Shown: one piece after another, positions 8,874-23,864 of the stretch
Layout: the number at the start of each line of letters is the position of its first letter
Numbering within the stretch: the first letter of the stretch is position 1
Assembly (NCBI GenBank): GCA_048270185.1
Contig: JBLWTJ010000003.1
Coordinates: forward strand, 256,001-320,000
DNA length: 64,000 nucleotides
Reading direction: 5' to 3'
Source: Bacteriovoracaceae bacterium
GTDB lineage: Bacteria > Bdellovibrionota > Bacteriovoracia > Bacteriovoracales > Bacteriovoracaceae
Notes under the pieces: generated by a model
Databases searched by the model: none
What the model saw: only the letters and a program-made list of their open reading frames with translations
Told to the model about the DNA's origin: nothing
Made by a program: the position numbers and the translations under genes

Positions 8874-10154
8874 ATGCAAAAACTCTTGAAATTTCTATTC
8901 TTATTAAATATTTCCCTGCTAAATTCATATGCAGCAAGCCTCGAACTTACAGAGACATCTGATCCTGTTATCAAACTAATGTCTGATAGTACGACTGAGA
9001 TAAATAATCTATTTGTTACTTCATCTGGAGATGCCAGAACTCTTGATGCAGCTCCTAAAATTTATGCACCAATTGGCTTGTCTTCAGGTACTCCATCTTC
9101 AAATTACTTCATTAGTGGCGTGACCCTTCCAAAAGCAACTGGGACATCTGGCGGTATACAGCTTACGGATGTGAGTGTAACTGGAGTAGGAAGTACAGAG
9201 AAGATCTATACTGCTATTTTAAATAATGATGATTCGACACCAACTTATCGTATTATTGGAGAGGTTACGAATCAGATAAATCCGTTTGTACCATATACTG
9301 CTTTATGTTTAACTGACTCAGTTGTATGCGAAGGATTTAGTGACTCAACTGCTTCGATCAAGCCAAATCTTGAGCTTGTTATTTTCGTTGCTTCGTCTGA
9401 TGCTGACTACTCAAATAATGATGATGTTAATGTTGATGATATCCCAGATGCCGTGGGGCAAGCTCTCTTTTTTAAGCTTATAATGAGTTCTTCAACTATA
9501 ATAAGTAGCCAAACACCTTTGATTACAGCAGATTATGATGGTGATTCAATGGGAGTCATTGAATACACTGGTGATTTTGGGTCAAACTCAAAGTATATTT
9601 CTCGTATTGTTTCTTATACTGATACTTCAAGTGGTACATTAAAGGGCGCAAGTCTAAGAGAGGTTAACGAAGGTGTTGGTGAAGAGGGAAGTATTACAGT
9701 TAGAAACCTTGCCAATAATCAAACCTACTTCTCGAGTATCGCTTATGTCGACCACTTTGGTTTCACTTCACAACTAAGTTCTGAAGTAACTCTTACTCCA
9801 AGACCAATTGAGGCCTTATTGGCCGCTAATCAATGCTACTTTGTGACGGCCGGGTTTCAACGCAATCACTATGTCCTAAATTACTTCCGCTATATTAGGG
9901 ATGAATTTCTACTAAAGTCGACAGTCGGAAAGGCATTTGTTGACTTTTATTATAGCAGTGCGCCACAATATGTCGGCTATATTCTAAATAACAAGTCCAT
10001 CGCTCATCGTGTAAAATCATATAGTTTCTCAACTTATTTTGTTTTACAAAATATGGCCTCTATAATAGGATGCATGTTACTACTTGCTGTATTTAACTAT
10101 TTTAGAAGACAAAGAAGAGAGCAATTTTATGCCTTACAAAGTTCTAATTGTTGA
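8874..10154 (+). CDS. Secreted Ser/Thr-rich surface protein with C-terminal CFI-box-CTERM-like domain
   Basis: Signal peptide; C-terminal CYFVTAGF...FRYIRDEFLLKSTVGKAFVDFYYSSAP, then a TM helix and an RRQRR basic tail. Confidence 0.75.
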   Translation: MQKLLKFLFLLNISLLNSYAASLELTETSDPVIKLMSDSTTEINNLFVTSSGDARTLDAAPKIYAPIGLSSGTPSSNYFISGVTLPKATGTSGGIQLTDVSVTGVGSTEKIYTAILNNDDSTPTYRIIGEVTNQINPFVPYTALCLTDSVVCEGFSDSTASIKPNLELVIFVASSDADYSNNDDVNVDDIPDAVGQALFFKLIMSSSTIISSQTPLITADYDGDSMGVIEYTGDFGSNSKYISRIVSYTDTSSGTLKGASLREVNEGVGEEGSITVRNLANNQTYFSSIAYVDHFGFTSQLSSEVTLTPRPIEALLAANQCYFVTAGFQRNHYVLNYFRYIRDEFLLKSTVGKAFVDFYYSSAPQYVGYILNNKSIAHRVKSYSFSTYFVLQNMASIIGCMLLLAVFNYFRRQRREQFYALQSSNC

Positions 10155-10500
10155 TGACGAACCAGATATTCTCGAGCTTTTAGCTGAAGAGCTAGAGTTT
10201 GAAGGATACGAGATTGAATGTGCCTATTCAGGGAATTCAGCTGTTAAGCTCATCGATAACGGTCATACTTTCGACGCTATTATCTCAGATTATAAAATGC
10301 CTGACGGTAATGGGAAGGTTGTGCTCGATTATTCGAATGGCCACAAAGATCAGAAAGAAAAAGTTTTCTACTTTGTTTCTGGCCAGGCCGATATTTCACT
10401 CAAAGAGGCCATGAAAGAGGGTGTTACACGCTTTTTCTATAAGCCATTTGATCTGGATGAATTACTTACTAGTTTAAAGAGCGACCTCGGACAGTCTTAG
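10129..10500 (+). CDS. Single-domain response regulator (CheY-like receiver)
   Basis: VLIVDDE, ISDYKMPDGNG, VSG and KPF. ATG 10129 preferred as start. Confidence 0.92.
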   Translation: MPYKVLIVDDEPDILELLAEELEFEGYEIECAYSGNSAVKLIDNGHTFDAIISDYKMPDGNGKVVLDYSNGHKDQKEKVFYFVSGQADISLKEAMKEGVTRFFYKPFDLDELLTSLKSDLGQS

Positions 10501-11510
10501 TTTAAGACTGTCGAGTGATTGCCACGTACATAGCGATTCTTTCCAACATGATCTTCTTTATTTTCTTCCATTAGAAGATCCCAAAATCCATCCATTTCAT
10601 CATACTTTGCAATTAGCTCATATGTACGCCCAAGACCTTGCCTCGAGAATGCACTTCTTTGGAATTCAACATTAGTTCTAAGACTATCAAACTCACCTCT
10701 AAGAGTTGCAACTGTTTCATCTGTAAGGTCAGCGAACTCTTCTTGCATAAGATCTAAGATACGGTTTGCAAGTCTCTTAGGTCCAAAGTAACTTGAAATA
10801 AATTTAACAAATACTGTCGCATTGATCTTTCTAAGAATAGGGTTGGCCTTATCGTAGAATGCACTCAGGAAGCATTCATCAATCTGCTGGTGTCTAACTT
10901 CATCAAGCATATGATAGTAGTGACATTGCCAGAAGTTCCAGTCCACATCATTCTTCTTTAGGGCCTTATTATATTTTTTCGAAATATCCAGGGTTCTTTC
11001 TTCAAAGAAGAGAGCAATCCAAATCCACCATAGAAAGATCTGTGGAAACATTGTTACGATCTTCATAATGATATTTTGAGTACGAGTTAATTTAAAAATT
11101 CTTAGTGGATTCTCTTTTGAATAATTATGCGGCTCGGCCTTCATTAACATTCTTAAGAAGATCTCACCGTGTTTGTCCTCTTCTTCCATAAAGTGATCAA
11201 TGGCCTCTGCCATTTGATCATTTAATTTATAGATTCGCTTACAGCTTCTTAGAGCTGGATTTAGAAGTACATTTTCAAACCAAATAAATTGCTCACAAAT
11301 TGATAGACCAATTAATTGGTTGAAGCGAAGTTTTTGAGCATCAGTTAAGAGGTCATAGCTTGGAAGATAAGAGAGAGTAATCATCTCATCTGGAGTCCAT
11401 TTTAAGCTATGATCAATAGGCTTAGTCCAATCTAGGGCCTCAACAGTGAAGGCGCGATCAATAGATTGCTTATTTAGCCTTTCTAATTTTTCAACTAGTC
11501 TTGTTTCCAT
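10497..11510 (-). CDS. AurF/CmlI-type diiron oxygenase (ferritin-like)
   Basis: Carboxylate/His ligand spacing WFE...EEDKH...FFEE...HMLDEVRH (HxxDExxH). Confidence 0.8.
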   Translation of the reverse strand: METRLVEKLERLNKQSIDRAFTVEALDWTKPIDHSLKWTPDEMITLSYLPSYDLLTDAQKLRFNQLIGLSICEQFIWFENVLLNPALRSCKRIYKLNDQMAEAIDHFMEEEDKHGEIFLRMLMKAEPHNYSKENPLRIFKLTRTQNIIMKIVTMFPQIFLWWIWIALFFEERTLDISKKYNKALKKNDVDWNFWQCHYYHMLDEVRHQQIDECFLSAFYDKANPILRKINATVFVKFISSYFGPKRLANRILDLMQEEFADLTDETVATLRGEFDSLRTNVEFQRSAFSRQGLGRTYELIAKYDEMDGFWDLLMEENKEDHVGKNRYVRGNHSTVLN

Positions 11511-11758
11511 ATTGCCCTCAATTCTTCTTTATGATTATTTTCTAGGTAATTAATTAAGTCCTGTGTTGTCTGACACTGGAGGAAGATCGTAACAGGTAGC
11601 TCATCAAAGTCTTCCTTAAGCCTTGCAATGAACGACATAGCGTCATATGAGTCAAGGCCAAGTGTTGCAAACTTTGTCTCAAGATTGAGTTCGATATTCT
11701 TTTCTTCAGCAACTTCTGCAATCGCTTCATTTAAATATTTTAGAACCTCTTGAGTCAT
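11495..11758 (-). CDS. Acyl carrier protein
   Basis: 87 aa, acidic, LGLDS phosphopantetheine site; lies between the FAAL and the diiron enzyme. Confidence 0.88.
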   Translation of the reverse strand: MTQEVLKYLNEAIAEVAEEKNIELNLETKFATLGLDSYDAMSFIARLKEDFDELPVTIFLQCQTTQDLINYLENNHKEELRAIWKQD

Positions 11759-11772
11759 ATTTAATTCCCGCT

Positions 11773-13389
11773 TTATCTACCTATATTTTCTCTTAATAAG
11801 AAATTGAATTTAAATTTATTTTTAATAAAAGATGCTTTTAGGAGTTCAAATCGATAACGATTCTCTCTCGAAGTTAGCTCGCCACTTAAGAAGCGCTTCT
11901 TAGCATCCTGTCTCTTTACTTTACCACTTGTTGTCTTCTTCAGGGTAAGCTCTGGAAGAATTACTATGTGGTGTTTAGAAATAGACACTTTTTTGCTCAC
12001 GACCTCAGCGATTTGAGACTTGATTTTATCTCGACAAGTAGCTGATTTTTCGTTGATTTCTGCCACAATATAGGCCGTCTCACTCTTTTCATCACTAACA
12101 GAGAAGGCAACGACACGTCCGAGCTTAACTTCAGGAACTTGGGCCGCTAAGAACTCAATATCATTGGCAAAGATATTGACTCCATTACAGATGATGAGAT
12201 CCTTACTTCTTCCTGTTACATAGAGGTTATTGTCTTTAAGAAAACCTAGATCTCCCGTATTAAGCCAGCCGTCTTCTAAGTGAGACTCACGTCCGTAGTA
12301 GTGAGTTGAAATCGATGGTCCTTTGATATAGATTTCACCTATACCATTGTCACTATTTCTAATCTCAATCTGAGTTGGAGCAAGTACCTTTCCACATGAG
12401 ATATATTCTTCACCATCACGATTTGTTGACTCATACTTTGTTTCAACTTCGTGAAAAGTAACAGCAAGAGTTGCTTCAGCAAGCCCGTATACTGGCATAA
12501 TTGCATTGGCATTAAAGCCATACTTTGCAAATCTCTTAGAAAATGCATCAAGGACATTTCTCTTAATGGGCTCAGCTCCGCATTGAGCAAAGCGGATATG
12601 ACTTAAGTCTAATCCTTCAAGCTTACTTTCTGGAATCTTTGTCGCACACACATAGTAGGCCGAGTTTGGAATACAAAGTGCAGAGCACTTTGTTTCAGAC
12701 ACAAGCTTAAGCCACTTATGAGGGGCGAGCATATAGTCTTGAGTTCGAACAATATGACATGGAAGATTCTTTAAAAGAGCAGTCAGTAAACTTCCTATCA
12801 GTCCCATATCATGGTGTAGGGGAAGCCACGTGCAGATTGAATCGTTCTCATTGAGTTTTATTCCAGTATTGATTTGTTCATTATTTGCTAAGAGATTTCT
12901 TTGGCTGACTACGACACCTTTAGGGGCAGAAGTTGATCCAGATGAAAATTGAATAAAGCAAGTATCGTCTAATGTTGGGTTATAGAAGCTAGTGTCCAAT
13001 GGTGAATTTTCTAATTGCGCTATATTTGTAAAATTAGCAGGTGTAGACTTTGAGGCGATATACTTAGTTTTTGCACTTGTAGCAAATTGCATAAGTAGTG
13101 TTTCAAAATCATCTTTTAGCATAAGAGCGTTGGATGCCATTGGAACTGGTGTATTCTTAGAAAGAAGAATACCAAAGAAATATGTCACAAAACTTTCTTC
13201 GTTTTCAAATGAGAGAATAATATTCTCATTCTCAATTGCTTGTGCCTTAATATTTGAAGCAATTTGCTTTGCCTTGAGCATCAGTTCATCAATTGATAGT
13301 GAACTTACTAGCTTAAAGTTCTTGTAAAAGAATAGAACTTCTTTGTCTTTATTTGTGTTGCTATTAAGTAGTTCTAGAATATTATTCAT
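11773..13389 (-). CDS. Fatty acyl-AMP ligase (FAAL)
   Basis: FIQFSSGSTSAPKGV, WLPLHHDMGLIG, GAEPI, YGLAEATL, TGDLGF, GRSKDLII and KTTSGK. Confidence 0.88.
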   Translation of the reverse strand: MNNILELLNSNTNKDKEVLFFYKNFKLVSSLSIDELMLKAKQIASNIKAQAIENENIILSFENEESFVTYFFGILLSKNTPVPMASNALMLKDDFETLLMQFATSAKTKYIASKSTPANFTNIAQLENSPLDTSFYNPTLDDTCFIQFSSGSTSAPKGVVVSQRNLLANNEQINTGIKLNENDSICTWLPLHHDMGLIGSLLTALLKNLPCHIVRTQDYMLAPHKWLKLVSETKCSALCIPNSAYYVCATKIPESKLEGLDLSHIRFAQCGAEPIKRNVLDAFSKRFAKYGFNANAIMPVYGLAEATLAVTFHEVETKYESTNRDGEEYISCGKVLAPTQIEIRNSDNGIGEIYIKGPSISTHYYGRESHLEDGWLNTGDLGFLKDNNLYVTGRSKDLIICNGVNIFANDIEFLAAQVPEVKLGRVVAFSVSDEKSETAYIVAEINEKSATCRDKIKSQIAEVVSKKVSISKHHIVILPELTLKKTTSGKVKRQDAKKRFLSGELTSRENRYRFELLKASFIKNKFKFNFLLRENIGR

Positions 13390-15739
13390 TCAGAGCTCCT
13401 TCGAGGTAGCTTATAATCTCCATCGTACGATTAAAAACAACAGGCATGAATTCATATTCAGAAACACTGTGTCCCACATAGTAGAAGAGCACTCGATTTA
13501 ATAAATATTCATTTGCACAGGCAAGCATATTAGTTAGCTTCTCCTTGCGCGCTAGTTCTAATGAATCTTGAGCAAGATAATAATCAATATCGGCTTCAAT
13601 CTCAGTTACAGGTGTTGTAAAACTCATAAACTCAACAAGGTCGCGATATGGAGAGTTATATCTCGATAACTCCCAATCATAGAAACATGGACGGCCATTC
13701 TTAAAGCAGATATTTCTTGGATTAAAATCATTATGAGTCAGAGTTTTTGGGCCCTGATCGATAATTTTCATCCACGAGGAGCTTTCTTTAACTATTGATT
13801 CAAGCTTAGCTTCCGTCTCTTTACTGATATAATTTTGCGCTCTGATATAAGTAATAATCGAATCACATAGGTCGGTATCAATACTTGTCTTACCTGTATT
13901 TAGAGAAGATTCTCTAATTAAATCACTCTCGCTAAAATGAGTGTGAACTTTTGAGATGGCATTATAAATGAGCTCTCTAGTGGACTTCGTCCAGAGATCA
14001 AGTTGGCCTTGAGTATTCATTAGCTCAATTTGAGTGTCATTTAAGTTCTCTAAAAGTAGTAAATAAGCTTCTTTTTGCGTGTTGATATACGTTCCATGTA
14101 GTTTTGGAAGATATCTTTCAAATTCTTGAGATACGAATTCATATGCTTCAATTTCTCGAATATGACATTTTGTAAACTCGTTATCTGATTTTGTCTTTAA
14201 GAACTTGCGTCTAATATCACTGTCGGCAAAACCAGCAATGGCCGCAAGACCTGCGATAACGTCACTATCCATAGGCTTTGATTTAAGGATGATTTTGTCC
14301 TTACCATCTACTGTAAGGGCCGTAAAACCAAGGGCCTTGTTAACAACACGTGATGTGGCCTCTGTAATGATTCCGTTTTCAATATTAATTTTTACATCAT
14401 GTTCAATACTTTCAGCATTCTTAATAATATCACTTTGAACCTTAAAGTTTTCAGTGATGAATTCCTTTGTAATATCTTTTGTCTTAATTTGATCTTTTGG
14501 ATTATTGCGTCCTAGTTTGTCGTGAGCGTAAGCAAATTGGCCTCCACAGATGGCCGACATTGTTGAAAGCTCAAGAGAGAGGGCAGCACCAGCAATGATT
14601 TTGGCAAGTCTTTCAACTTTTCCAGCACCAGAGCATCCAATTGATTGAAGACAGTTCTTATAATGTCCAAGCCCTGTTCCACCACCAACTGTTCCAATAA
14701 CAAGAGAAGGTAGTGTTAAGCTTACATAGAGTCCTTTTTCATGTTTCTCAAAGTTTAAAACGGCCGTCGAAGACTCGTGAATACAAGCAAGGTCTTGCCC
14801 TGTTGAAGCAAAGATTGCAGCAACAGCGTTTGCAACGTTTACGTTATATCCTGTCATTCCCTCTAGGCGAGTGATAGGAAGTGACCTTAAGTATAGATTA
14901 ATAAGATCTGTTGAAGTTGTTTTTAGAACTCTTTGTAGAACTTTTTCTGTGATAACACATTCTGCTGTGACATATGTACCACGTGTTTGCATTGCTGAAC
15001 CAACTGAAACTTTTTTATCGCTTGATCCATTTCCTTCTAAGAAGAATTCAATCATCTTAATCTTAGAAGTTAGCATTTCTTCTTTAATCCAAAGACATGC
15101 CTGCCAAGTACAAACAGTTGTCATATTTTGACCAGAAGCATCCCCTGACTCATAAATGAATTTTGCGTGTACGTTACGTCCAATAAGAACGGGTTTAATT
15201 TTTATAAGATTTGCAAAGTTTGAATATTTCTTAGTGATACTTTTAATTGTATTAAAATTTTCTTCCAGCCAATTAATAAAATCATCAGCGTGATCGATAT
15301 TTTCAAATGTAAATACTGGTGCGCGATACATGCGCTTTCTTGTTACACGAGAGCGAAAACCACCACAAAGTGAAATAGCAAAAGCACCACGAGTAATTGA
15401 AGAAACAAGAGCTCCTTCAGAAGTTGCAATAGGAATATAAATATCTTCTTTTTCTTGATCTTTACCAATCATCTTAAGTGGCCCACAAATACCAAGTGGA
15501 ATTGAGACGCTCCCAGCATAGGACTCAATATTTCCCTTTAGATTAAAACCATCAAGATCAGTGTTGATTAAAGACTCAAGACTTTCTCCGCATTGTTCTT
15601 CAAGAATTGAAATACGCTTAAGGCGTGCGGCCTCAGAATAGTCAAAACGCGAAGGAGCCGATGCCTTTCTTGTCGGTTGTTCATTTGGGATTGTCACCTG
15701 TGAGGAAGCACTATTTGTTGCTGAGATTTCTATTTTCAT
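13382..15739 (-). CDS. Class I HMG-CoA reductase-like domain fused to a C-terminal APH/choline-kinase-like phosphotransferase
   Basis: N-terminal half has PIATSEGALVSS..RG, GDASGQNM, GNGSSDKK, GTVGGGT and a late His (AHDKLGR). C-terminal part has THNDFNPRN and FYDWE kinase motifs. Confidence 0.88.
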   Translation of the reverse strand: MKIEISATNSASSQVTIPNEQPTRKASAPSRFDYSEAARLKRISILEEQCGESLESLINTDLDGFNLKGNIESYAGSVSIPLGICGPLKMIGKDQEKEDIYIPIATSEGALVSSITRGAFAISLCGGFRSRVTRKRMYRAPVFTFENIDHADDFINWLEENFNTIKSITKKYSNFANLIKIKPVLIGRNVHAKFIYESGDASGQNMTTVCTWQACLWIKEEMLTSKIKMIEFFLEGNGSSDKKVSVGSAMQTRGTYVTAECVITEKVLQRVLKTTSTDLINLYLRSLPITRLEGMTGYNVNVANAVAAIFASTGQDLACIHESSTAVLNFEKHEKGLYVSLTLPSLVIGTVGGGTGLGHYKNCLQSIGCSGAGKVERLAKIIAGAALSLELSTMSAICGGQFAYAHDKLGRNNPKDQIKTKDITKEFITENFKVQSDIIKNAESIEHDVKINIENGIITEATSRVVNKALGFTALTVDGKDKIILKSKPMDSDVIAGLAAIAGFADSDIRRKFLKTKSDNEFTKCHIREIEAYEFVSQEFERYLPKLHGTYINTQKEAYLLLLENLNDTQIELMNTQGQLDLWTKSTRELIYNAISKVHTHFSESDLIRESSLNTGKTSIDTDLCDSIITYIRAQNYISKETEAKLESIVKESSSWMKIIDQGPKTLTHNDFNPRNICFKNGRPCFYDWELSRYNSPYRDLVEFMSFTTPVTEIEADIDYYLAQDSLELARKEKLTNMLACANEYLLNRVLFYYVGHSVSEYEFMPVVFNRTMEIISYLEGALNE

Positions 15740-15843: not shown

Positions 15844-16770
15844 TTATAGGCTGAATAACGTGTACCTTCGATCTCTTTGTGAAATATCCTTGGCAAAGAG
15901 TGAAGGAAGATTTCCATCTCTCATAAGACACAGGTAGGCCTGCTCATACTTGTCTCTAATGGCCGGGATAATAGACTTTAGTAAATAGATAAAGGTTAGT
16001 CCCATATGGCGATGATCTGGGTGAACTCCCATGGTCTTAATAAGTAGTCGTTTGGCGCTTGGATCTGTGACGTCAATGAAGTTTAAGATGATCCCAATGA
16101 TCTCGTTAGATCCTTTTTCAATAAGACAACACGATGTATGCGGGCAGATAATGGCCGCCATTTGTCGCCCATATTTTTGTTTGAAGGTATCAAGTGTGAC
16201 ACTTGAGTAGGCGAGATTATCACCAAAGACTTCTTCGGCACTTGCATAGAATTTATCAATATTTGAAAGCCAGTAATCGGCATCAATCATTTGAAGTTCA
16301 TAAGCAGATTCAATTGTATTTTGGTCAATACCATCAAATTGTTCGGACCACTTAAGAAGTTTTTCAAAATCATTAATTTCATAAGTTAGATATTTTTCAA
16401 ATACTTCACCATGTTGACTTAAAAAATTATAGAAGTTCATGTCACAAGGAGGCTCCATCAGATAAGTCGGCCTATAATCTTCATCACAAAGACGGTAAGT
16501 GTTATATGTTGAAAAATTTAGGGGACCAACAATCTTTTCACACTTATTCTTTGTCTTGTAGGCAATGGCAGCTTCCTTGAAAGCGTCAAATTCGATCTGT
16601 GTGAAGTTACCATGACAAAAACCAAAATAAGCACAGTCTGCTATTTTAAAGAAAATCGAATGACTACTTCCAGAAGTAAATTGTTCGATATTTAATAATT
16701 CCGGTCCATTCTTAAATAGTTCATATTCAATCTGTTGTTCTGGTGAAAGTAATTCGATATTAATTGACAT
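15844..16770 (-). CDS. GNAT-fold acyltransferase (YghO-like)
   Basis: IVGPLNFSTYNTYRL and the acyl-CoA binding motif KTMGVHPDHRHMGL. Confidence 0.7.
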   Translation of the reverse strand: MSINIELLSPEQQIEYELFKNGPELLNIEQFTSGSSHSIFFKIADCAYFGFCHGNFTQIEFDAFKEAAIAYKTKNKCEKIVGPLNFSTYNTYRLCDEDYRPTYLMEPPCDMNFYNFLSQHGEVFEKYLTYEINDFEKLLKWSEQFDGIDQNTIESAYELQMIDADYWLSNIDKFYASAEEVFGDNLAYSSVTLDTFKQKYGRQMAAIICPHTSCCLIEKGSNEIIGIILNFIDVTDPSAKRLLIKTMGVHPDHRHMGLTFIYLLKSIIPAIRDKYEQAYLCLMRDGNLPSLFAKDISQRDRRYTLFSL

Positions 16771-17695
16771 AAATACCTACAATAATTGCAATATAGAGTA
16801 GAAGGGCATAGAGGCCAAAACTTGCTTCATTTTTCTTGCGACCTTTTAGACTTGGTTCTTTGACAAATTTTACAAGAGTAATCTGAGCAAAGACAAATCC
16901 AATTGTTGCCATAGCTATTGTTATGACCTTGTAATTTGGCATAATCGTTGTAAAGAAAAGAAAGCAACCAAGAGTGATAATATTCATAAGAGAGATAATC
17001 ATCACTGTTCCATTAATACCGTAAATCTTTGTGTACGAATCAAGTGTTTCAGTTTCTTCTTCTGGCCCACGACATTTTCTTGTGAACTCATAAGAGAAAC
17101 CGGAAGCAAGACTCATGGCCAGTACAATATAAGTATAGAGTTCAAATTGTGGCATATTCCACTTTGACGACATAATCCAAATAATTATAAGAGGTGAGAC
17201 GAGCATATGAGAAAAAGAGTAGAGTGTTAGTCTCTTCTCAAGCCAACTACCAATAAAGAACTCTTTGGCCATAAGGGTCGACCAAAGATAGACAATACCG
17301 TAACAAATAAGTGTTAGATAATTATTTTCAATAAGAAGACTAAAAGCGATGGCGATAGCTGTAAATAGCACCGCAATGGTATCGAGGTGAGCAAGTTTAA
17401 TTAATCCCCTTTGAAGGGCCCTTTTAGGGTGATTAATGCAATCGATCTCATAATCTTTGTGCTCATCAAAAACTCTAAGTATAAAATAGTGGCCAACAAC
17501 AGCTAGTGCCCCAAGAATATCAAGTAATTTAAACTCTAAATTTTGATCAGTAAGATAGAGTGCAACTCGGCTCATGACAATATAAGTAATAATTCCTGAA
17601 ATAACATTGGCCATTGGAAATCGCTCTTGTGACCAAGCAAAGTATCTCTTATAAAATGGATCTTCTATCGTTATATGACTTATATCCTTACTCAT
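16760..17695 (-). CDS. UbiA-superfamily intramembrane prenyl/alkyltransferase
   Basis: Multiple TM helices and an Asp-rich motif RVFDEHKDYEIDCINHPKRALQRG. Confidence 0.82.
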   Translation of the reverse strand: MSKDISHITIEDPFYKRYFAWSQERFPMANVISGIITYIVMSRVALYLTDQNLEFKLLDILGALAVVGHYFILRVFDEHKDYEIDCINHPKRALQRGLIKLAHLDTIAVLFTAIAIAFSLLIENNYLTLICYGIVYLWSTLMAKEFFIGSWLEKRLTLYSFSHMLVSPLIIIWIMSSKWNMPQFELYTYIVLAMSLASGFSYEFTRKCRGPEEETETLDSYTKIYGINGTVMIISLMNIITLGCFLFFTTIMPNYKVITIAMATIGFVFAQITLVKFVKEPSLKGRKKNEASFGLYALLLYIAIIVGIYVN

Positions 17696-17764
17696 GTATA
17701 AGGCCCCCTTAAAGTATTTATTTCCTTGATTACATTATATAATGAAAACAACTATAATTGGGAT

Positions 17765-18799
17765 ATGGCAAAATATTTTACTGAAAAACTAAATTACTCC
17801 CTTGCAAACGAGGATATCTCTTTTGAGGCAAATCTTTGTAAAAAGTTAAACCCTAAGACAATAGGCTCAATCTGTGGTGCTGGGCCACGTGGCCTATACT
17901 TAGCGACAAATGATTCAAGTCTCGACTTATTTGATGTTTCAGGACTTCAGGTAGAATGGGCAAGAGCTTATGAAAAGGCGATTACAGGACTTGATGAAGT
18001 AAGCTTTTTAAGGGCATATCATGATGATTCTGCAATATTAAAAAGTATTGATGTGAATCATGGGCTAAATCAGATCATTGATGAAAATGAATTAGCTGCT
18101 CTTGCGGGAAGTTGGGAGAAAACATTTATCAAATTTTCCAAAATTGCGTCAAAGATACTAGGGAAGAAGCTAATCAATGCATTCAAGCATTGTAAGACGA
18201 TGGAAGATCAAGACTTAATCTTGAATTCAACATCCTTTAAGATTCGTTGGACTGTCGTTTTATCTATAGTTGGAAATAAGGCCCTAATGAATTCACTTCT
18301 TTATCGTGGTGACTTCATTAAGAAGAATATTCCAGAGAGTTATGTGCGCTTTTATCGAAAACGTTTTGCTCACTTATTCTCACTATCGCTTGTAAAGGAT
18401 AATTTCTTCTTAAGTCTTTGTCTTTTTGGTGAAGTATCTTTAACAAATACACCTCTTCGTTATCGTGATTTTGAAGAACTTAAGAATGCCGTAACAACTT
18501 CAAATATTAAGTATCATATTGGAGATGTTGTTACGAAGCTTAAAGAAGGTAGTCAACAATATGAGTACTTTTCTTACTCCGATGTACCAAGCTACTTTGA
18601 TGACGAATTAGGAAGGAACTTTGTTCAAATGGCCAAACCTTCCATAAAAATTGGCGGAATCATTTGTGTTCGTTACTATCTAAGAATTCATAAACCAGAT
18701 CTTAATGGCTTTGAAGAAGTTACTTCTGAATACGCGGATGAGATTGGAAGAGAGAGAGTTGGTGTCTATGACATCAGATTATATAAGCGAGTAGCCTAG
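17765..18799 (+). CDS. BtaA/DUF3419-family SAM-dependent 3-amino-3-carboxypropyl transferase-like protein
   Basis: LNYSLANED N-terminal motif, SAM-loop-like ICGAGPR, SDVPSY and ERVGVY. ATG 17765 preferred over TTG 17726. Confidence 0.7.
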   Translation: MAKYFTEKLNYSLANEDISFEANLCKKLNPKTIGSICGAGPRGLYLATNDSSLDLFDVSGLQVEWARAYEKAITGLDEVSFLRAYHDDSAILKSIDVNHGLNQIIDENELAALAGSWEKTFIKFSKIASKILGKKLINAFKHCKTMEDQDLILNSTSFKIRWTVVLSIVGNKALMNSLLYRGDFIKKNIPESYVRFYRKRFAHLFSLSLVKDNFFLSLCLFGEVSLTNTPLRYRDFEELKNAVTTSNIKYHIGDVVTKLKEGSQQYEYFSYSDVPSYFDDELGRNFVQMAKPSIKIGGIICVRYYLRIHKPDLNGFEEVTSEYADEIGRERVGVYDIRLYKRVA

Positions 18800-18800
18800 G

Positions 18801-21461
18801 CTACTCGACTTTTATAATTCCTTTATCACAATCCATTTCAATCATTTGACCATTCTCTAATACTTTCGTGATATTTGGAACACCAACAATTGTTGGGATC
18901 TTTAATTCTCGGGCGATGACGGCCGAGTGAGAAAGAGTAGAACCTTTTTCTACGAGAAGCCCTTTTATTGAAGGAAATAGCGGTGCCCAACCTGGATCAG
19001 TTCTTACCGTACAAAGAATTTTGTCATTAACATCAATACCTTCGTCTGGTTTAAAGAGAAGGGCAACTTCACCTTTAATATGACCAGGGTAGCAACCAAT
19101 ACCTTTAAGTGCACCATCTGGGTCAAACTCAGTATTGCCATCATATTCAAAGCTATTGGCCACGTGAACGAAACCATGAGTTGTAAAGTGGTGTCCAGGC
19201 TCATTCATTTCATATGACTGATACTCTTCTTTTCTTAACTCAATTAAAGCCTTAAGATTTCTTTGAACAATACGCCCATCTTTAAACTCTTCAAGTTCAT
19301 TTAAAGTTAAGTAATAAATATCTTCTGGAGCATTAATTATCTCAAAAGCAGCAAGTTGTTTTCCCATTTCACTATAGATCTGTCTTGAGATACCAAATGA
19401 CTTTGTTCTTAGAAGGCGAGTGTTTTCACGGTATCGAATGGCCTTTCTAAGTTTTGACAGATCTTTATAAAATTTAGAACGACTAAAAATTGAAAGCCTT
19501 TCTTTAACGATAGGAGCTATCTTGGCCTCTTCAGAATCTCGAAGTTCCATTTCATTGGCGATAAATCCTTCGTAATTTAAATCTTCTTTTTGAACGTAAT
19601 TCTTTAAGATATTTATGAGAAAGCTAGGATCTTCTCTAAGAGATAAACTCTCAAGCTTAAGCTCTCCAATGGTACGATCACCATAGTTTTCAATATATTC
19701 AAGACACATATTATAGACTCGAATATTATTGATATAGAGATAATCTAGAACTTTATGATTTTCCATATTAAGAAATGTCTTAATACTTTCAGCATCCCAC
19801 TTCTTTATTTGATCACTAATTTTTAAGAGTTCTTTTGTCGGTTGAGTACTGGCAATATCGTGTTCACCTGATAGTAGATTTCCAAGAGTGATATCAGGGT
19901 TTTCAACCTTTAGCTTATCCATCCAGCGATACATCTTCCCATTCATCATCATAACGTAGAAGTCATTGATGAGGGGAGCATGCCACTTATCTGTAATTTT
20001 CTTATCTAGTTCTTCCGTTAACTCAAAAAGCTCTGTTAGGCTTAGACGATTAAGTTTTGAATAGTCGATGGTATGATAGACTTTATAGAAATCGGTCATG
20101 AAATTTTCAACAACTTTATCGATTTTTGAGAAATACCACAGAAGACTTCCAAAACATCGAATCATATTTGGGAGCATGGCCAGTTTTTCTCTAAAGCTTA
20201 GTTGCTTGTCTTCGATAAAGTCGACTGGGTCAGTAATCCCCATCATTTTTTCCATATCTTCTTTTGATTGATTAAAAGAAGGAAGAAGCAGAAGTCCCTT
20301 ATACCAAGATTGAATATTATAAAATACACGGCCTTCAATTAGGGCAATCATATTTTTATGGCGTTTCTCATGTTTCTTTAGCTCTTCTTCACTCAGTCCT
20401 GAAAGTCCAAGTAGTTGGTGATAGACTTTGTAGTACATCTTTGAAGCGTATGAAAATGTAAGAGGTGTCGTGACGCCATTAAAAGACTCTTGAATATTTG
20501 AGTTATCAAAAACATTCTCAAATTTCGATCTCTTATCTTTAGGAAGGGAAGTGATATCTCTTGTTTGCACAATATAGATTTCTCCCTCTCTAATACAGAA
20601 CTCAATATCTTGTGGCTTCTTCTTTATTGTTAGGATATTTAAAGCAAGCTCTCTTAGTTCTCTAATTTCAGAGTCCGTTAAAACATGAGATAATTTCTGT
20701 GATTCTTCAATATTCACTTTCTTTGTCGTTTTTAAGTCGTAGTCGGCGATAATTTTGAAGTCTTTTTCTCGAATTTCGTATTTAATTTCCTCATTATCAT
20801 CGATGGTGTACTCATCTGTATTACATTCACCACTAACAACTCCTTCTCCTTGACCAAAGTTAGCTGAAAGAAGCATTTGATCGCGGCGTCCATTAATTGG
20901 GTTTGCTGTGAACATAACACCTGATTTCTCTGGATCAATCATTTCTTGAATAATGACGGCCATCTTTGGTGTTGTTTGGTGAATTCCATTCTTAAAGCGA
21001 TATGTAAGTGCGGTTAAGGAGAAGTTACTCTTAAAGCAATCTTTAATGGCCTTTGCAATCTTATCTTCCCCTTGAACATAGAGAAATGATTCAAGTTGCC
21101 CTGCAAATGAGAAGTGAGCACCATCTTCATCGGCAGCGGAGCTTCGTACAGCATAGTGCATATCTCTTTCTAGATGAGTAGCTACTTTATCGATGATATC
21201 AATTTCACAAAGGTCAATTTGATCATGAATATTTTTTATGAGCTCTTTTAGTCCATCAATGGATTCAAGATTTGTGTACTCTTCAATAAGAGCATTTAAC
21301 CTGTCATTTTTGTCCACTATCGTTTGAAAGTAGTCACTCGTGATACAAAACCAGTCCGGAGTTGAAACCTTACACTTTTCAAGTTTAGCAAGATTATAGG
21401 CCTTGCCCCCAACTTGCGACTTGTGTGCAAGTAATGATTCAAATTTGTTTAAAAGATACAT
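18801..21461 (-). CDS. PEP-utilising dikinase with rifampicin-phosphotransferase (RPH)-like architecture
   Basis: ATP-grasp N-terminus (VGGKA, AVRSSA.DED, SFAGQ, GEGVVSG, PQDIEF, QTRDIT), a large helical middle domain and a C-terminal phospho-His domain (TDPGW...GSTLSHSAVIARE). Confidence 0.9.
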   Translation of the reverse strand: MYLLNKFESLLAHKSQVGGKAYNLAKLEKCKVSTPDWFCITSDYFQTIVDKNDRLNALIEEYTNLESIDGLKELIKNIHDQIDLCEIDIIDKVATHLERDMHYAVRSSAADEDGAHFSFAGQLESFLYVQGEDKIAKAIKDCFKSNFSLTALTYRFKNGIHQTTPKMAVIIQEMIDPEKSGVMFTANPINGRRDQMLLSANFGQGEGVVSGECNTDEYTIDDNEEIKYEIREKDFKIIADYDLKTTKKVNIEESQKLSHVLTDSEIRELRELALNILTIKKKPQDIEFCIREGEIYIVQTRDITSLPKDKRSKFENVFDNSNIQESFNGVTTPLTFSYASKMYYKVYHQLLGLSGLSEEELKKHEKRHKNMIALIEGRVFYNIQSWYKGLLLLPSFNQSKEDMEKMMGITDPVDFIEDKQLSFREKLAMLPNMIRCFGSLLWYFSKIDKVVENFMTDFYKVYHTIDYSKLNRLSLTELFELTEELDKKITDKWHAPLINDFYVMMMNGKMYRWMDKLKVENPDITLGNLLSGEHDIASTQPTKELLKISDQIKKWDAESIKTFLNMENHKVLDYLYINNIRVYNMCLEYIENYGDRTIGELKLESLSLREDPSFLINILKNYVQKEDLNYEGFIANEMELRDSEEAKIAPIVKERLSIFSRSKFYKDLSKLRKAIRYRENTRLLRTKSFGISRQIYSEMGKQLAAFEIINAPEDIYYLTLNELEEFKDGRIVQRNLKALIELRKEEYQSYEMNEPGHHFTTHGFVHVANSFEYDGNTEFDPDGALKGIGCYPGHIKGEVALLFKPDEGIDVNDKILCTVRTDPGWAPLFPSIKGLLVEKGSTLSHSAVIARELKIPTIVGVPNITKVLENGQMIEMDCDKGIIKVE

Positions 21462-21504: not shown

Positions 21505-23070
21505 ATGAGAAAAATTGAAGATATAAGGAAAACTCTGGGTTATTTGGACAATCAAGAAACACCAATAAATGGTTGCCACTACCTCGATGCTCACTTTAGA
21601 AATCAACTTAATAAGCGCTGTCTTGTTTACGAAGATCAAGATCAAAACTTTGGTGACTTCATGGCCGAGGTCGGTGCCTGGATAAATACTTTAACCGATC
21701 AGGGAATTGGGCGAGGGGATCGAGTGATTATTCTTCTTCCATTAAGGTTAGAGCTCTATCAATTAATGTGTGCCTTGTTCTATATTGGTGCTGTTGTCGT
21801 CTCTGTTGACTCCACAATGCCAAAGGATAAGCTAAAACTTGCAATTGAAGATGCAAAGGCCAGTGCCATCTTCTCTGTTTCGGCCCTTCTAAAATGGACT
21901 CCTCTTTTGCCGTCCCTTTGGAAGTTAAAGCGCTATACATTTGAAGAGTCATGCTTCTTTGCAAAAGACCTAGCTATACTTCGTGCTGATAATACACTTG
22001 ATTTTAAACAAGTTGATATTGGTGAGAATGGCCCGGTTCTTATTTCTTTTACTTCTGGCTCAACTGGAAGGCCAAAAGCCGCCAATCGAAGTCTTGAAAT
22101 CTTTCTTGCACAAAAAATTGTTTCTGAATTTTTCTGGCTTCACAGTGAAGATGAGATTGATATGCCATTTTTTCCAACTCTTGTTTTACAAAATCTTGGT
22201 CTTGGGATTACGACAATCTTCCCTGATTTAGACTTTAGAAAGATTAGAGATTTTGACCCATCAAGAGTTATAAAGCAGATGAATGATTATGGTGTCACTC
22301 GTTTTAGTGCAACCCCTATGATCATTAAAAAACTTGCAAAGTACATTGCTGTAAAAGGGATATCAATTCCTACTCTTCGCTCTGTTATTATTGGTGGTGC
22401 AGAGATCACAACACAGGCCGCTACGACTGTTCTTGCTGCCTTGAAGCTAGCTAACCCAAATGTTGAAGTACATATTATCTACGGTTCAACAGAAGTTGAG
22501 CCTATAAGCTTTACTCCTATTGAGGATTATATTGAAAATCAAAGTATTGGTTTGAAACTGGGAAAAGTTATTGACGTCTTAGATATTAAAATAAATCCAG
22601 TTACTGATATTTTTGATTTCAATGAAGGACTAGAGTGGGGCGAGATCTGTTTAAGTGGCCCTCATGTAATTAAAGAATATATTGATAATCATCCGGCCAA
22701 TAAGACAACTAAGATTAGAGATGAAGATGGACATCTGTGGCATTTAACTGGTGATGTTGGTTATGTAAAGGATGGTCTAGTCTATCTTCTTGGACGTCTA
22801 AAAGACTGTCTTATTATCGATGGGTTAAAGTATCCGACCTTTCACTTTGAAAATGCTTTGGCCAAAATTGAGGGAGTGCAAAGAGCTGCCCTAATTCAAA
22901 AAGATAGTCGAGTAATTTGCTATATCGAGGGGGCGCAGACTTCGAGAGAAGTTGTTAAGAGTTATCTTGATAATTATTTTAGAAATTGTTTTGAAATTAT
23001 TTATCGTGAGATCCCAGTTGACTCAAGACATTTCTCTCGAGTCAACCGTAATGAATTAAGAAGTTATTAA
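21505..23070 (+). CDS. AMP-dependent ligase, OleC-like (ANL superfamily)
   Basis: SFTSGSTGRPK, YGSTEVEPIS, GEICLSGPHV, WHLTGDVG and LGR. Confidence 0.85.
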   Translation: MRKIEDIRKTLGYLDNQETPINGCHYLDAHFRNQLNKRCLVYEDQDQNFGDFMAEVGAWINTLTDQGIGRGDRVIILLPLRLELYQLMCALFYIGAVVVSVDSTMPKDKLKLAIEDAKASAIFSVSALLKWTPLLPSLWKLKRYTFEESCFFAKDLAILRADNTLDFKQVDIGENGPVLISFTSGSTGRPKAANRSLEIFLAQKIVSEFFWLHSEDEIDMPFFPTLVLQNLGLGITTIFPDLDFRKIRDFDPSRVIKQMNDYGVTRFSATPMIIKKLAKYIAVKGISIPTLRSVIIGGAEITTQAATTVLAALKLANPNVEVHIIYGSTEVEPISFTPIEDYIENQSIGLKLGKVIDVLDIKINPVTDIFDFNEGLEWGEICLSGPHVIKEYIDNHPANKTTKIRDEDGHLWHLTGDVGYVKDGLVYLLGRLKDCLIIDGLKYPTFHFENALAKIEGVQRAALIQKDSRVICYIEGAQTSREVVKSYLDNYFRNCFEIIYREIPVDSRHFSRVNRNELRSY

Positions 23071-23864
23071 TTTGTCGGCATGAGACAAAGCTTCTTAATT
23101 TTCTTTGTAAGCTTAGACGGCAGTGTTGATCTAATCATGGCCCAGAAGCTTAGTCTGTGTCCGTAACAAGATTGCCACTCTGGAGTGTACATCATACCCT
23201 CATCTTCTAAGTCTTTTTCGTCTAAATAGTCTTGAAGGTGAAGATCAAGAAGTCTCTCAGAATCAGACTTATGAAGAAGTCTTGATTGATAAAGTGAGTC
23301 TGCGATTTCAAACGGTGTAATAAAGCTTTTTTGACCGCTGTAGAGCTTATTATCAGCATTGAAGTTATAAGCTGCACGAATGAAAATATAGAATTTAATT
23401 CCAGGGTATTCCTCACTTACATCATGATAGAAAGTATGGTCATGTTCTCCATTATCACCAACAAGGATAACTTGATCTGGTTTTTCTCGTTCAATGAGCT
23501 CGCGAAGTTTTTGTGCCTTAAATACTTTTGTTGAAACTTTAATTGGCCTAATGAGTAGATTTTCTTGTTGAGGAAAATCTCCTGCATACAGAAGAGTTGA
23601 ATGAGACCACTTCATGACTTCGGCCGGAGCATTTGTTAGATAGTAAATATCCGCATCAAGTCTGCGCTCAATAATCTTATAAAGATCGGCCATCCCTAGA
23701 AAGATATTTGTCACTCGGTAAGCATTCTTTACTGCAGCGATTTTATTGCGAACATGGGCAACCTTAACCGTATCATCAATATCTGAGACGAGGATGGTCT
23801 TTGCTGCATGGGCGCTAAGGTTTAATGTCAGGAGAATTATCAGTATTATTTTTAAATTTTTCAT
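23067..23864 (-). CDS. Secreted App1/DUF2183-type phosphatidate phosphatase (HAD)
   Basis: Signal peptide, VSDIDDTVK and LVGDNGEHD. Confidence 0.8.
   Translation of the reverse strand: MKNLKIILIILLTLNLSAHAAKTILVSDIDDTVKVAHVRNKIAAVKNAYRVTNIFLGMADLYKIIERRLDADIYYLTNAPAEVMKWSHSTLLYAGDFPQQENLLIRPIKVSTKVFKAQKLRELIEREKPDQVILVGDNGEHDHTFYHDVSEEYPGIKFYIFIRAAYNFNADNKLYSGQKSFITPFEIADSLYQSRLLHKSDSERLLDLHLQDYLDEKDLEDEGMMYTPEWQSCYGHRLSFWAMIRSTLPSKLTKKIKKLCLMPTN

Follow-up and report, generated by a model that had tools for sequence, protein, structure and literature searches.

A predicted fatty-alcohol-forming reductase fused to an APH-fold kinase in accessory gene clusters of Bdellovibrionota and other bacteria

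The 64,000-nucleotide stretch of Bacteriovoracaceae DNA analysed here (the window; contig JBLWTJ010000003.1, positions 256,001 to 320,000) encodes a 785-residue protein in which a domain of the class I 3-hydroxy-3-methylglutaryl (HMG)-CoA reductase (HMGR) fold is followed by a kinase domain of the aminoglycoside phosphotransferase (APH)/choline-kinase type. We propose that this fusion probably converts long-chain acyl thioesters to alkyl monophosphates in two steps: the reductase half, whose substrate pocket resembles that of the acyl-CoA reductase FcrA, would release the chain as a primary alcohol, and the kinase half would phosphorylate it. A preliminary description of the same DNA had offered two readings, a mevalonate-phosphate shortcut and a repurposed reductase releasing an acyl chain as an alcohol for phosphorylation. 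The second is well supported by the FcrA-type pocket, by the exchange of the reductase for an unrelated thioester reductase in front of the same kinase, and by a protein that joins fatty acyl-AMP ligase (FAAL), acyl carrier protein (ACP), HMGR and kinase domains.

Results

An intact two-domain fusion

13382..15739, minus strand: predicted FcrA-type (class I HMGR-fold) acyl-thioester reductase and APH/EcKL-type kinase fusion, 785 aa
14507..15619, minus strand: reductase domain, residues 41-411; catalytic E108, K242, D316 and H406; pocket E235, R285, N301, T393 and F402
13385..14488, minus strand: kinase domain, residues ~418-785; K486/K488, E529, HNDFNPRN and DWE

The open reading frame (ORF) is unbroken and carries every motif named in the preliminary description: ATSEG (residues 105-109), DASGQNM (200-206), DKK (241-243), GTVGGGT (349-355) and His406 in the reductase half, and HNDFNPRN (669-676) and DWE (688-690) in the kinase half. 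Pfam places HMG-CoA_red at residues 41-411 (345 bits), EcKL at 524-724 and APH at 662-712, and the same two-domain split emerges from a PDB sequence search and from the predicted model, in which residues 78-400 match an archaeal class I HMGR (6HR7, Z 33.3) and residues ~418-785 match APH/choline-kinase folds (best Z 20.2). With the whole fusion model as Foldseek query, HMGRs only were found among the matches listed. The locus has no GHMP match, in line with the earlier assignment of the kinase to the aminoglycoside/choline-kinase fold.

A homologue search that admitted proteins of 431-1374 aa only shows that each of the best 119 of 1049 homologues spans 90% or more of the query, and that 118 of these 119 have a precomputed APH domain. 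Such full-length homologues rule out a frameshift or assembly artefact as the source of the fusion, and they run counter to the scenario of two genes that are always separate. The reductase-kinase fusion is real and widespread: named members among the best 119 of 1049 belong to Bdellovibrionota, Bacteroidota and Desulfobacterales, relatives at 78-81% identity are named Halobacteriovorax or Bacteriovorax, and one fusion lies on a Streptomyces plasmid. No relatives were found in viral contigs.

An FcrA-type substrate pocket

FcrA is an HMGR homologue that reduces acyl-CoA of C14 and longer to the alcohol with NADPH and leaves HMG-CoA unreduced; its marks, as given in the available text of the report, are a Glu in place of Ser684, a bulky residue in place of Leu862 and the loss of a conserved Lys to varied, generally small residues (Grossi et al. 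2025, PMC11948995). This Lys, K735 (printed as Lys795 in PMC11948995), forms a salt bridge with the HMG carboxylate (PMC9500038). Human HMGR numbering was transferred to the fusion by alignment to 1DQ8, and pocket residues were counted across 189 distinct fusions (120 from the homologue list plus 75 locus ORFs of at least 700 aa, minus duplicates).

The HMGR catalytic residues E559, K691, D767 and H866 are invariant (189/189), as are R590, D690, K692 and N755. Position 684, Ser in the human enzyme, is Glu in 130 and Asp in 59 fusions (E235 in the query); the Lys at 735 is kept in 11 and elsewhere replaced by H, P, Q, R, N or A; and position 862, Leu in the human enzyme, is Phe in 188 (F402 in the query). 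Two further changes, H752 to N and L853 to T, occur in all 189 fusions, and N stands in for R627 in 181. Among 67 more diverse representatives, S684 is exchanged for E/D in 64 and H752 for N in 65. A control Streptomyces HMGR encoded within a mevalonate cluster retains S, K, H and L at positions 684, 735, 752 and 862, as do human, plant and archaeal HMGRs, and the fusion scores 289 bits against TIGR00533, for which the cut-off is 442. With class I HMGRs (Methanothermococcus 6HR7, human 1DQ8) the fusion shares the fold (Z 33.3; 319 aligned residues, 39% of them identical), the catalytic residues and the CoA-site residues S565 and R568; it differs in its remodelled HMG carboxylate pocket and in the fused kinase, and has never been found in a mevalonate cluster.

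The likeness to FcrA, as far as the available text of that report goes, extends to the class I HMGR fold, the catalytic tetrad, the S684 to E exchange, for most of the family the loss of K735 (Arg in the query), a bulky residue at L862, a second HMGR in the genome and ACP fusions in some members. The fusion differs in its C-terminal kinase, in Phe rather than Trp at 862, in H752N and L853T, and in a gene context of dikinase, UbiA and CarS rather than wax synthase or AGPS; the available text of PMC11948995 describes Lad and ACP fusions and AGPS/PlsC contexts for FcrA and does not contain the terms kinase, phosphotransferase, APH or phosphoryl. Among 120 stand-alone relatives, E/D684 is found in 119, F862 in 118 and N752 in 48. 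By the sequence criteria tested, the reductase half appears to be a member of an already known kind, working like FcrA, and the fusion one branch of a wider FcrA-like group that includes unfused forms. Because FcrA has already been described, the novelty of a repurposed reductase is lower than the preliminary description assumed.

A switch from CoA to ACP could not be read from CoA-site residues 116 and 120, which gave no clean pattern: locus L113 has a FAAL-ACP pair but keeps N and R. As a separate observation, 19 of the 67 full-length representatives (e.g. P0276, P0304, P0408, P0055 and L040) have an N-terminal extension of at least 100 aa before the reductase; those scanned had no Pfam match, and the extension may correspond to the alkyl-carrier domain that the FcrA paper calls Lad. 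Loci L117, L118 and L119 (genomes G383, G248 and G326) carry unfused class I HMGR-like genes directly upstream of a dikinase gene, with a pocket that differs again (Ile at 590, Arg at 684 and Leu at 657, in place of Arg, Ser and Met). A divergent HMGR-like gene whose product has a degenerate cis-loop is part of an operon for acyl-CoA carboxylase that also contains an oxidoreductase gene and one of the PrpD family (L125:911-10607, Sinorhizobium plasmid CP140923.1).

An intact kinase behind two unrelated reductases

The kinase residues H669, D671, N676 and D688 are invariant in 189/189 fusions, and the domain has the fold, the HxDxxxxN loop, the DxE metal loop, the N-lobe Lys and the helix-C Glu of APH/choline kinases. 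The kinase half is intact in these motifs, with no sign of the inactive domain that the preliminary description had considered. Corramycin phosphotransferase 8AGY, choline kinases and the 25-hydroxysteroid kinase 9FSG have its fold (Z 16-20) and catalytic motifs in common, but they are only 8-16% identical to it and their substrates are not transferable.

A word-based search with the kinase domain alone gave 2 matches; a profile search found many more, with 449 representatives of 50% clusters at E values of 1e-30 or below. The best 150 of these have a full HMGR domain in 67 cases, a shortened one in 9 and none in 74. When 46 of the 74 HMGR-less kinases were scanned, 32 proved to carry a thioester-reductase domain of the short-chain dehydrogenase/reductase type (NAD_binding_4), 22 of them behind a clear N-terminal ACP; P0332, a protein of this kind, scores above the TIGR01746 cut-off. 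P0329 has the layout FAAL-ACP-reductase-kinase, and P0372 the layout FAAL-ACP-HMGR-kinase with the pocket residues E684/N752. Two unrelated folds, each capable of releasing an acyl thioester as an alcohol, are found in one position ahead of this kinase. The most economical interpretation is that the alcohol from the reductase serves as the kinase substrate, and this domain-swap evidence is independent of the FcrA paper. Reductase and kinase distances also track each other closely (Spearman 0.79, 39 loci).

Reductive release of an ACP-bound acyl chain, as proposed for the fusion, is known from the thioester-reductase (R) domains of nonribosomal peptide synthetases (NRPS) and polyketide synthases (PKS) and from myxobacterial ElbD, a thioester-reductase type with a terminal PlsC-like domain (summarised in the available text of PMC11948995). 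Their FAAL-ACP-reductase layout recurs here with either reductase before the same kinase; the fusion differs from them in its reductase fold and in ending with a kinase where ElbD has the PlsC-like domain. A quick tree was built with 144 rows after removal of 7 short ones; it places all 32 thioester-reductase fusions in one 44-row branch (SH-aLRT 100), the other 12 rows of which are fragments or stand-alone kinases. The exchange may have been a single swap, in a tree without known root or direction.

Other arrangements of the kinase were seen as well. P0386 (939 aa) consists of two tandem copies of the kinase domain without a reductase. P0023, P0057, P0097 and L079:929-4045 are three-part fusions of ~1040 aa with a nucleoside monophosphate (NMP)-kinase-like domain ahead of the reductase-kinase pair, and in L017, L030, L062 and L063 the NMP-kinase-like protein is encoded by its own gene, next to which lie another NMP-kinase-like gene and one for an NTP_transf_5 nucleotidyltransferase.

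Mevalonate genes of the host

A single run of genes on contig C1 of the host genome encodes IDI-2, a class II HMGR (TIGR00532 above cut-off), a GYDIA-type GHMP kinase, MVD and a mevalonate-kinase-like protein; DXR was not found in this genome (95.9% complete). This is the separate HMGR and mevalonate operon for which the preliminary description had advised a check, and a second HMGR gene is present in 16/16 fusion-bearing Bdellovibrionota genomes. Together they rule out the housekeeping role that had been entertained for the fusion as the genome's sole HMGR. Neither a GHMP kinase nor a second HMGR maps to the window, which agrees with the earlier reading of it as otherwise free of mevalonate genes, and nine mevalonate-pathway queries (MVD, IDI and HMGS included) had no match in 90 fusion loci; as a positive control, two control operons cross-matched for MVK, MVD and IDI. 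The genes found around the fusion encode lipid enzymes. On these comparisons the fusion is not expected to be a mevalonate enzyme.

The mevalonate operon itself (L005:5579-11738; G000:C1:445578-451737) has no adjoining HMG-CoA synthase gene, and HMG-CoA synthase (PF01154) was not found in the host genome or 5 relatives (best tblastn E 0.023). An enoyl-CoA-hydratase-like gene abuts the operon, and the HMG-CoA may come from leucine breakdown or from a divergent synthase.

The local cluster

The fusion gene is accompanied in the window by the following genes.

10497..11510, minus strand: AurF-like di-iron protein (Pfam AurF, E 6e-14)
11495..11758, minus strand: ACP, 87 aa (PP-binding, E 1.1e-12; homologues in L003, L004, L120, L009 and L113)
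11773..13389, minus strand: FAAL-like protein (best NCBIfam PRK09192, 370 bits, below the cut-off of 600)
15844..16770, minus strand: GNAT-like protein (weak Acetyltransf_1, E 0.01; Brevibacillus counterpart GNAT, 4e-11)
16760..17695, minus strand: UbiA-superfamily membrane protein (PRK05951/PRK13592-like)
17726..18799, plus strand: DUF3419 protein (Pfam E 6e-14)
18801..21461, minus strand: phosphoenolpyruvate (PEP)-utilising dikinase of Rph/PigC architecture (PRK06241 family), phospho-His motif present
21505..23070, plus strand: OleC-like/PRK09274 adenylate-forming enzyme

The ACP gene, missed in the preliminary description, sits between the FAAL and AurF-like genes. The FAAL start overlaps the fusion stop by 8 nt, an overlap that had been taken to favour the acyl-alcohol reading; the overlap stands, and the argument drawn from it is a local one, with FAAL in 7 of the 37 well-flanked loci described below. 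The AurF-like protein probably desaturates or oxidises acyl-ACP, the GNAT-like protein is likely an acyltransferase, and the DUF3419 protein is presumably a BtaA-like aminocarboxypropyl transferase. The closest solved relative of the UbiA-like family profile is the archaeal digeranylgeranylglyceryl phosphate (DGGGP) synthase 6M31 (E 7e-8); the protein itself scores 28 bits against PRK12883 (cut-off 353) and has an altered second acidic motif.

Among Bdellovibrionota the fusion is carried by 16/401 genomes, including the host and 5/8 other genomes of its genus. In the three non-carrier genus members, the gene next to the flanking response regulator is not a cluster gene, and G+C content is 0.364 for the cluster and 0.366 for the genome. 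The cluster is accessory, and nothing points to its having been acquired recently. An APP1-like phosphatase gene (23067-23864) was set aside as a pathway member, as it also occurs in 3/3 same-genus genomes without the cluster. The cluster is flanked by a CFI-box-CTERM surface protein gene and a lone response regulator gene (8874-10500), which stay together in genomes of the genus without the cluster. A second lipid-type locus in the host genome (L151, G000:C1:1235541-1240422) has MMPL transporter, AurF-like and desaturase genes side by side.

Recurring partners across loci

Gene context was compared across 91 loci with the kinase domain (L010 was dropped as a copy of L108), 37 of which have at least 4 kb on both sides. 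In these 37, the commonest partners are the dikinase (33), the UbiA-like protein (28) and a CarS-like protein (24), followed by GNAT-like proteins (17), the OleC-like ligase (16), a membrane desaturase (14), a CDP-alcohol transferase (13), PlsC-like proteins (11), an MMPL transporter (10), AurF-like and DUF3419 proteins (8 each), FAAL (7) and NMP-kinase-like proteins (2); CarS-like and CDP-alcohol transferase proteins, which are linked through a fusion, were counted separately. Thinning to 18 loci at 50% identity leaves the dikinase in 15, UbiA in 12, CarS in 10, DUF3419 in 5 and FAAL in 4. FAAL, four of whose seven loci belong to one genus, was rejected as a general partner; that description fits the dikinase and the UbiA-like protein. 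The idea that the fusion co-evolves tightly with the dikinase was rejected likewise, at a Spearman coefficient of only 0.28 for the reductase and 0.23 for the kinase (39 loci, in which kin are not independent).

Some partners seem to exclude each other. Among the 91 loci, CarS (52) and DUF3419 (11) share no locus, nor do the membrane desaturase (34) and the AurF-like protein (8), and PlsC-like (23) and GNAT (20) proteins share one. These pairs look like interchangeable head-group, oxidation and acylation modules, in cluster types that go with kinship and so do not count as independent samples. Of the 37 well-flanked loci, 22 have a desaturase or an AurF-like protein and 15 have neither. Wax-ester use is disfavoured by the absence of a wax ester synthase/diacylglycerol acyltransferase match in 16 carrier genomes; this is weak evidence with a poor control, as no control genome matched and 1/301 genomes of the phylum did so weakly.

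A Brevibacillus cluster has an unfused FcrA-like gene amid similar UbiA, dikinase, DUF3419, GNAT and ligase genes. Its membrane protein has an indirect, sub-threshold link to CTP_transf_1 and motifs that we take to be phytol/dolichol-kinase-like; a 439-aa protein of the same cluster matched nothing in Pfam, NCBIfam or PDB and showed no resemblance to the CarS-like protein. On the Streptomyces sp. NBC_01435 plasmid NZ_CP109493.1 (L121:11134-18163), the fusion gene is grouped with genes for a 454-aa protein without Pfam or NCBIfam match, a DUF6182 protein, a GH3 ligase and an NMP-kinase-like protein, in an NRPS/PKS region that has a FAAL-loaded PKS and neither a dikinase nor a UbiA gene.

Discussion

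In the pathway that we propose for the host, FAAL would load a fatty acid onto the adjoining ACP, and the AurF-like protein would oxidise or desaturate the ACP-bound chain. The FcrA-type domain would then carry out a four-electron, NAD(P)H-dependent reduction of the acyl-CoA or acyl-ACP to the primary alcohol, which the APH/choline-kinase-fold domain would convert with ATP into an alkyl phosphate. This product would enter an accessory lipid pathway centred on the dikinase and the UbiA-like transferase and be decorated by the DUF3419, GNAT and OleC-like ligase proteins. The enzymatic activities, the carrier and the action of the kinase on the reductase's own product are all predictions, and the downstream chemistry is the weakest part of the proposal.

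The recurring partners suggest an archaeal-style route to a straight-chain ether lipid or phospholipid. Distant homologues of DGGGP synthase (6M31), CarS and CDP-alcohol phosphatidyltransferase stand beside the fusion in 28, 24 and 13 of the 37 loci, respectively, all of them below NCBIfam cut-offs. The archaeal donor is geranylgeranyl diphosphate; here a fatty-acid-derived straight chain would take its role, and the host genome has DUF3419 in place of CarS; neither geranylgeranylglyceryl phosphate synthase nor glycerol-1-phosphate dehydrogenase is among the annotated recurring neighbours, in a comparison without a search aimed at them. The dikinase or an NMP-kinase-like protein could raise the alk(en)yl phosphate to the diphosphate, the DGGGP-synthase-like UbiA protein could move the chain to a hydroxyl acceptor, and the lipid could be finished by CarS (about half of those loci have the CDP-alcohol transferase as well) or, here, by a betaine-type head group from DUF3419. 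The main objection is that UbiA chemistry is poorly served by saturated alkyl diphosphates as donors; the desaturase or AurF-like protein could supply an allylic chain, or the UbiA protein might instead use the alkyl phosphate as a nucleophile. We regard a bacterial ether (or ether-like) lipid route of archaeal logic with fatty-acid chains as a tentative possibility, and one that may well prove wrong.

Several observations weigh against the alkyl-phosphate proposal and the pathway built on it. The query has Arg at position 735, which is not a small residue (the alignment has a one-residue gap near the site), and retains R590, D690 and K692, which line the HMG site. H752N and L853T are absent from the available text of the FcrA paper and may mean that the substrate differs from a plain fatty acyl chain, and R627N leaves the cofactor uncertain. 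In a tree that includes no validated FcrA, the query clusters with bacterial orphan sequences that have E/D684 and stands away from the root, a Streptomyces HMGR. The top structural matches of the kinase act on an antibiotic, homoserine, methylthioribose and choline, and its fold therefore assigns no substrate. P0372 is one assembled sequence only. The thioester-reductase-kinase form had no full-length match in plasmids and none among the 16 kinase matches in 401 Bdellovibrionota genomes, and hence has no gene context; it may serve the fusion's pathway. At the level of clusters, FAAL/ACP is absent from 30 of the 37 well-flanked loci and the dikinase from four, co-divergence with the dikinase is weak (0.28 and 0.23, as against 0.79 between the fusion's two domains), and CarS has no match in the host genome (95.9% complete).

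The mevalonate shortcut of the preliminary description, in which mevalonate made from HMG-CoA would be phosphorylated by the non-GHMP kinase to feed UbiA with prenyl donors, can appeal to the class I HMGR fold and its catalytic residues, to the UbiA-like gene close by, to the few loci whose NMP-kinase-like protein, separate or fused, is a candidate for adding the second phosphate, and to the phosphorylation of prenol by choline kinase in an engineered isopentenol pathway (PMC9910604). It is nevertheless highly improbable: the carboxylate-binding S684 and K735 are gone family-wide, FcrA with equivalent changes does not reduce HMG-CoA according to the available text of its report, HMGR, MVK, MVD, IDI and a further GHMP kinase are encoded elsewhere in the host genome, and 90 fusion loci have no MVD, IDI or HMGS.

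The two other alternatives keep the reductive release of an acyl chain and differ in what is phosphorylated or reduced. The kinase might act elsewhere in the pathway, on a head group, a polyol acceptor or a later-made alkylglycerol, as would fit the near tie of choline, ethanolamine, sugar and homoserine kinases as structural matches, the stand-alone members of the kinase family (~15 of the 144 tree rows) and the N752 change in 48/120 stand-alone reductases without an attached kinase. We consider this unlikely, as fusion of the kinase has persisted with either of two unrelated reductases that form alcohols, its distances follow those of the reductase, and the kinase-less Brevibacillus cluster has its membrane protein with the putative phytol/dolichol-kinase-like motifs and the indirect, sub-threshold CTP_transf_1 link. 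Alternatively, the substrate could be a 3-hydroxy or otherwise oxygenated acyl thioester and the product an alkanediol 1-phosphate, a mimic of lysophosphatidic acid that would be acylated and CDP-activated to a glycerol-free phospholipid. R590 and D690, which we take to bind the 3-hydroxyl, are invariant, PlsC-like acyltransferases and CarS occur in 11 and 24 of the 37 loci, and one recurring 'desaturase' scores best against the hydroxylase family GntB; R590 and D690 are also retained in nearly all stand-alone FcrA-like sequences, however, the commonest partners, dikinase and UbiA-like protein, would be left without a job, and CarS has no match in the host, which together make this alternative quite unlikely.

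We found no description of the kinase fusion or its cluster in the open literature, in searches not made under the name FcrA, and the available text of a 2026 preprint on sponge-symbiont ether lipids does not contain the terms FcrA, HMG, UbiA or CarS. If our reading is right, genes of this kind would be unsafe as markers of the mevalonate pathway. According to the available text of PMC11948995, the pathways in which FcrA acts are often not those of wax esters, and if the conversion of acyl thioester to alkyl phosphate holds, the reductase-kinase clusters would be a concrete, testable case of such a pathway. It would assign a role to a large family whose members are at present annotated as 'phosphotransferase' or 'HMG-CoA reductase (NADPH)', couple a fatty-alcohol-forming reductase to a soluble long-chain alcohol kinase, and allow acyl-CoA to be turned into alkyl phosphate by one protein, with possible use in biocatalysis. 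It would also imply an uncharacterised lipid in Bacteroidota, Bdellovibrionota, Desulfobacterales and other bacteria.

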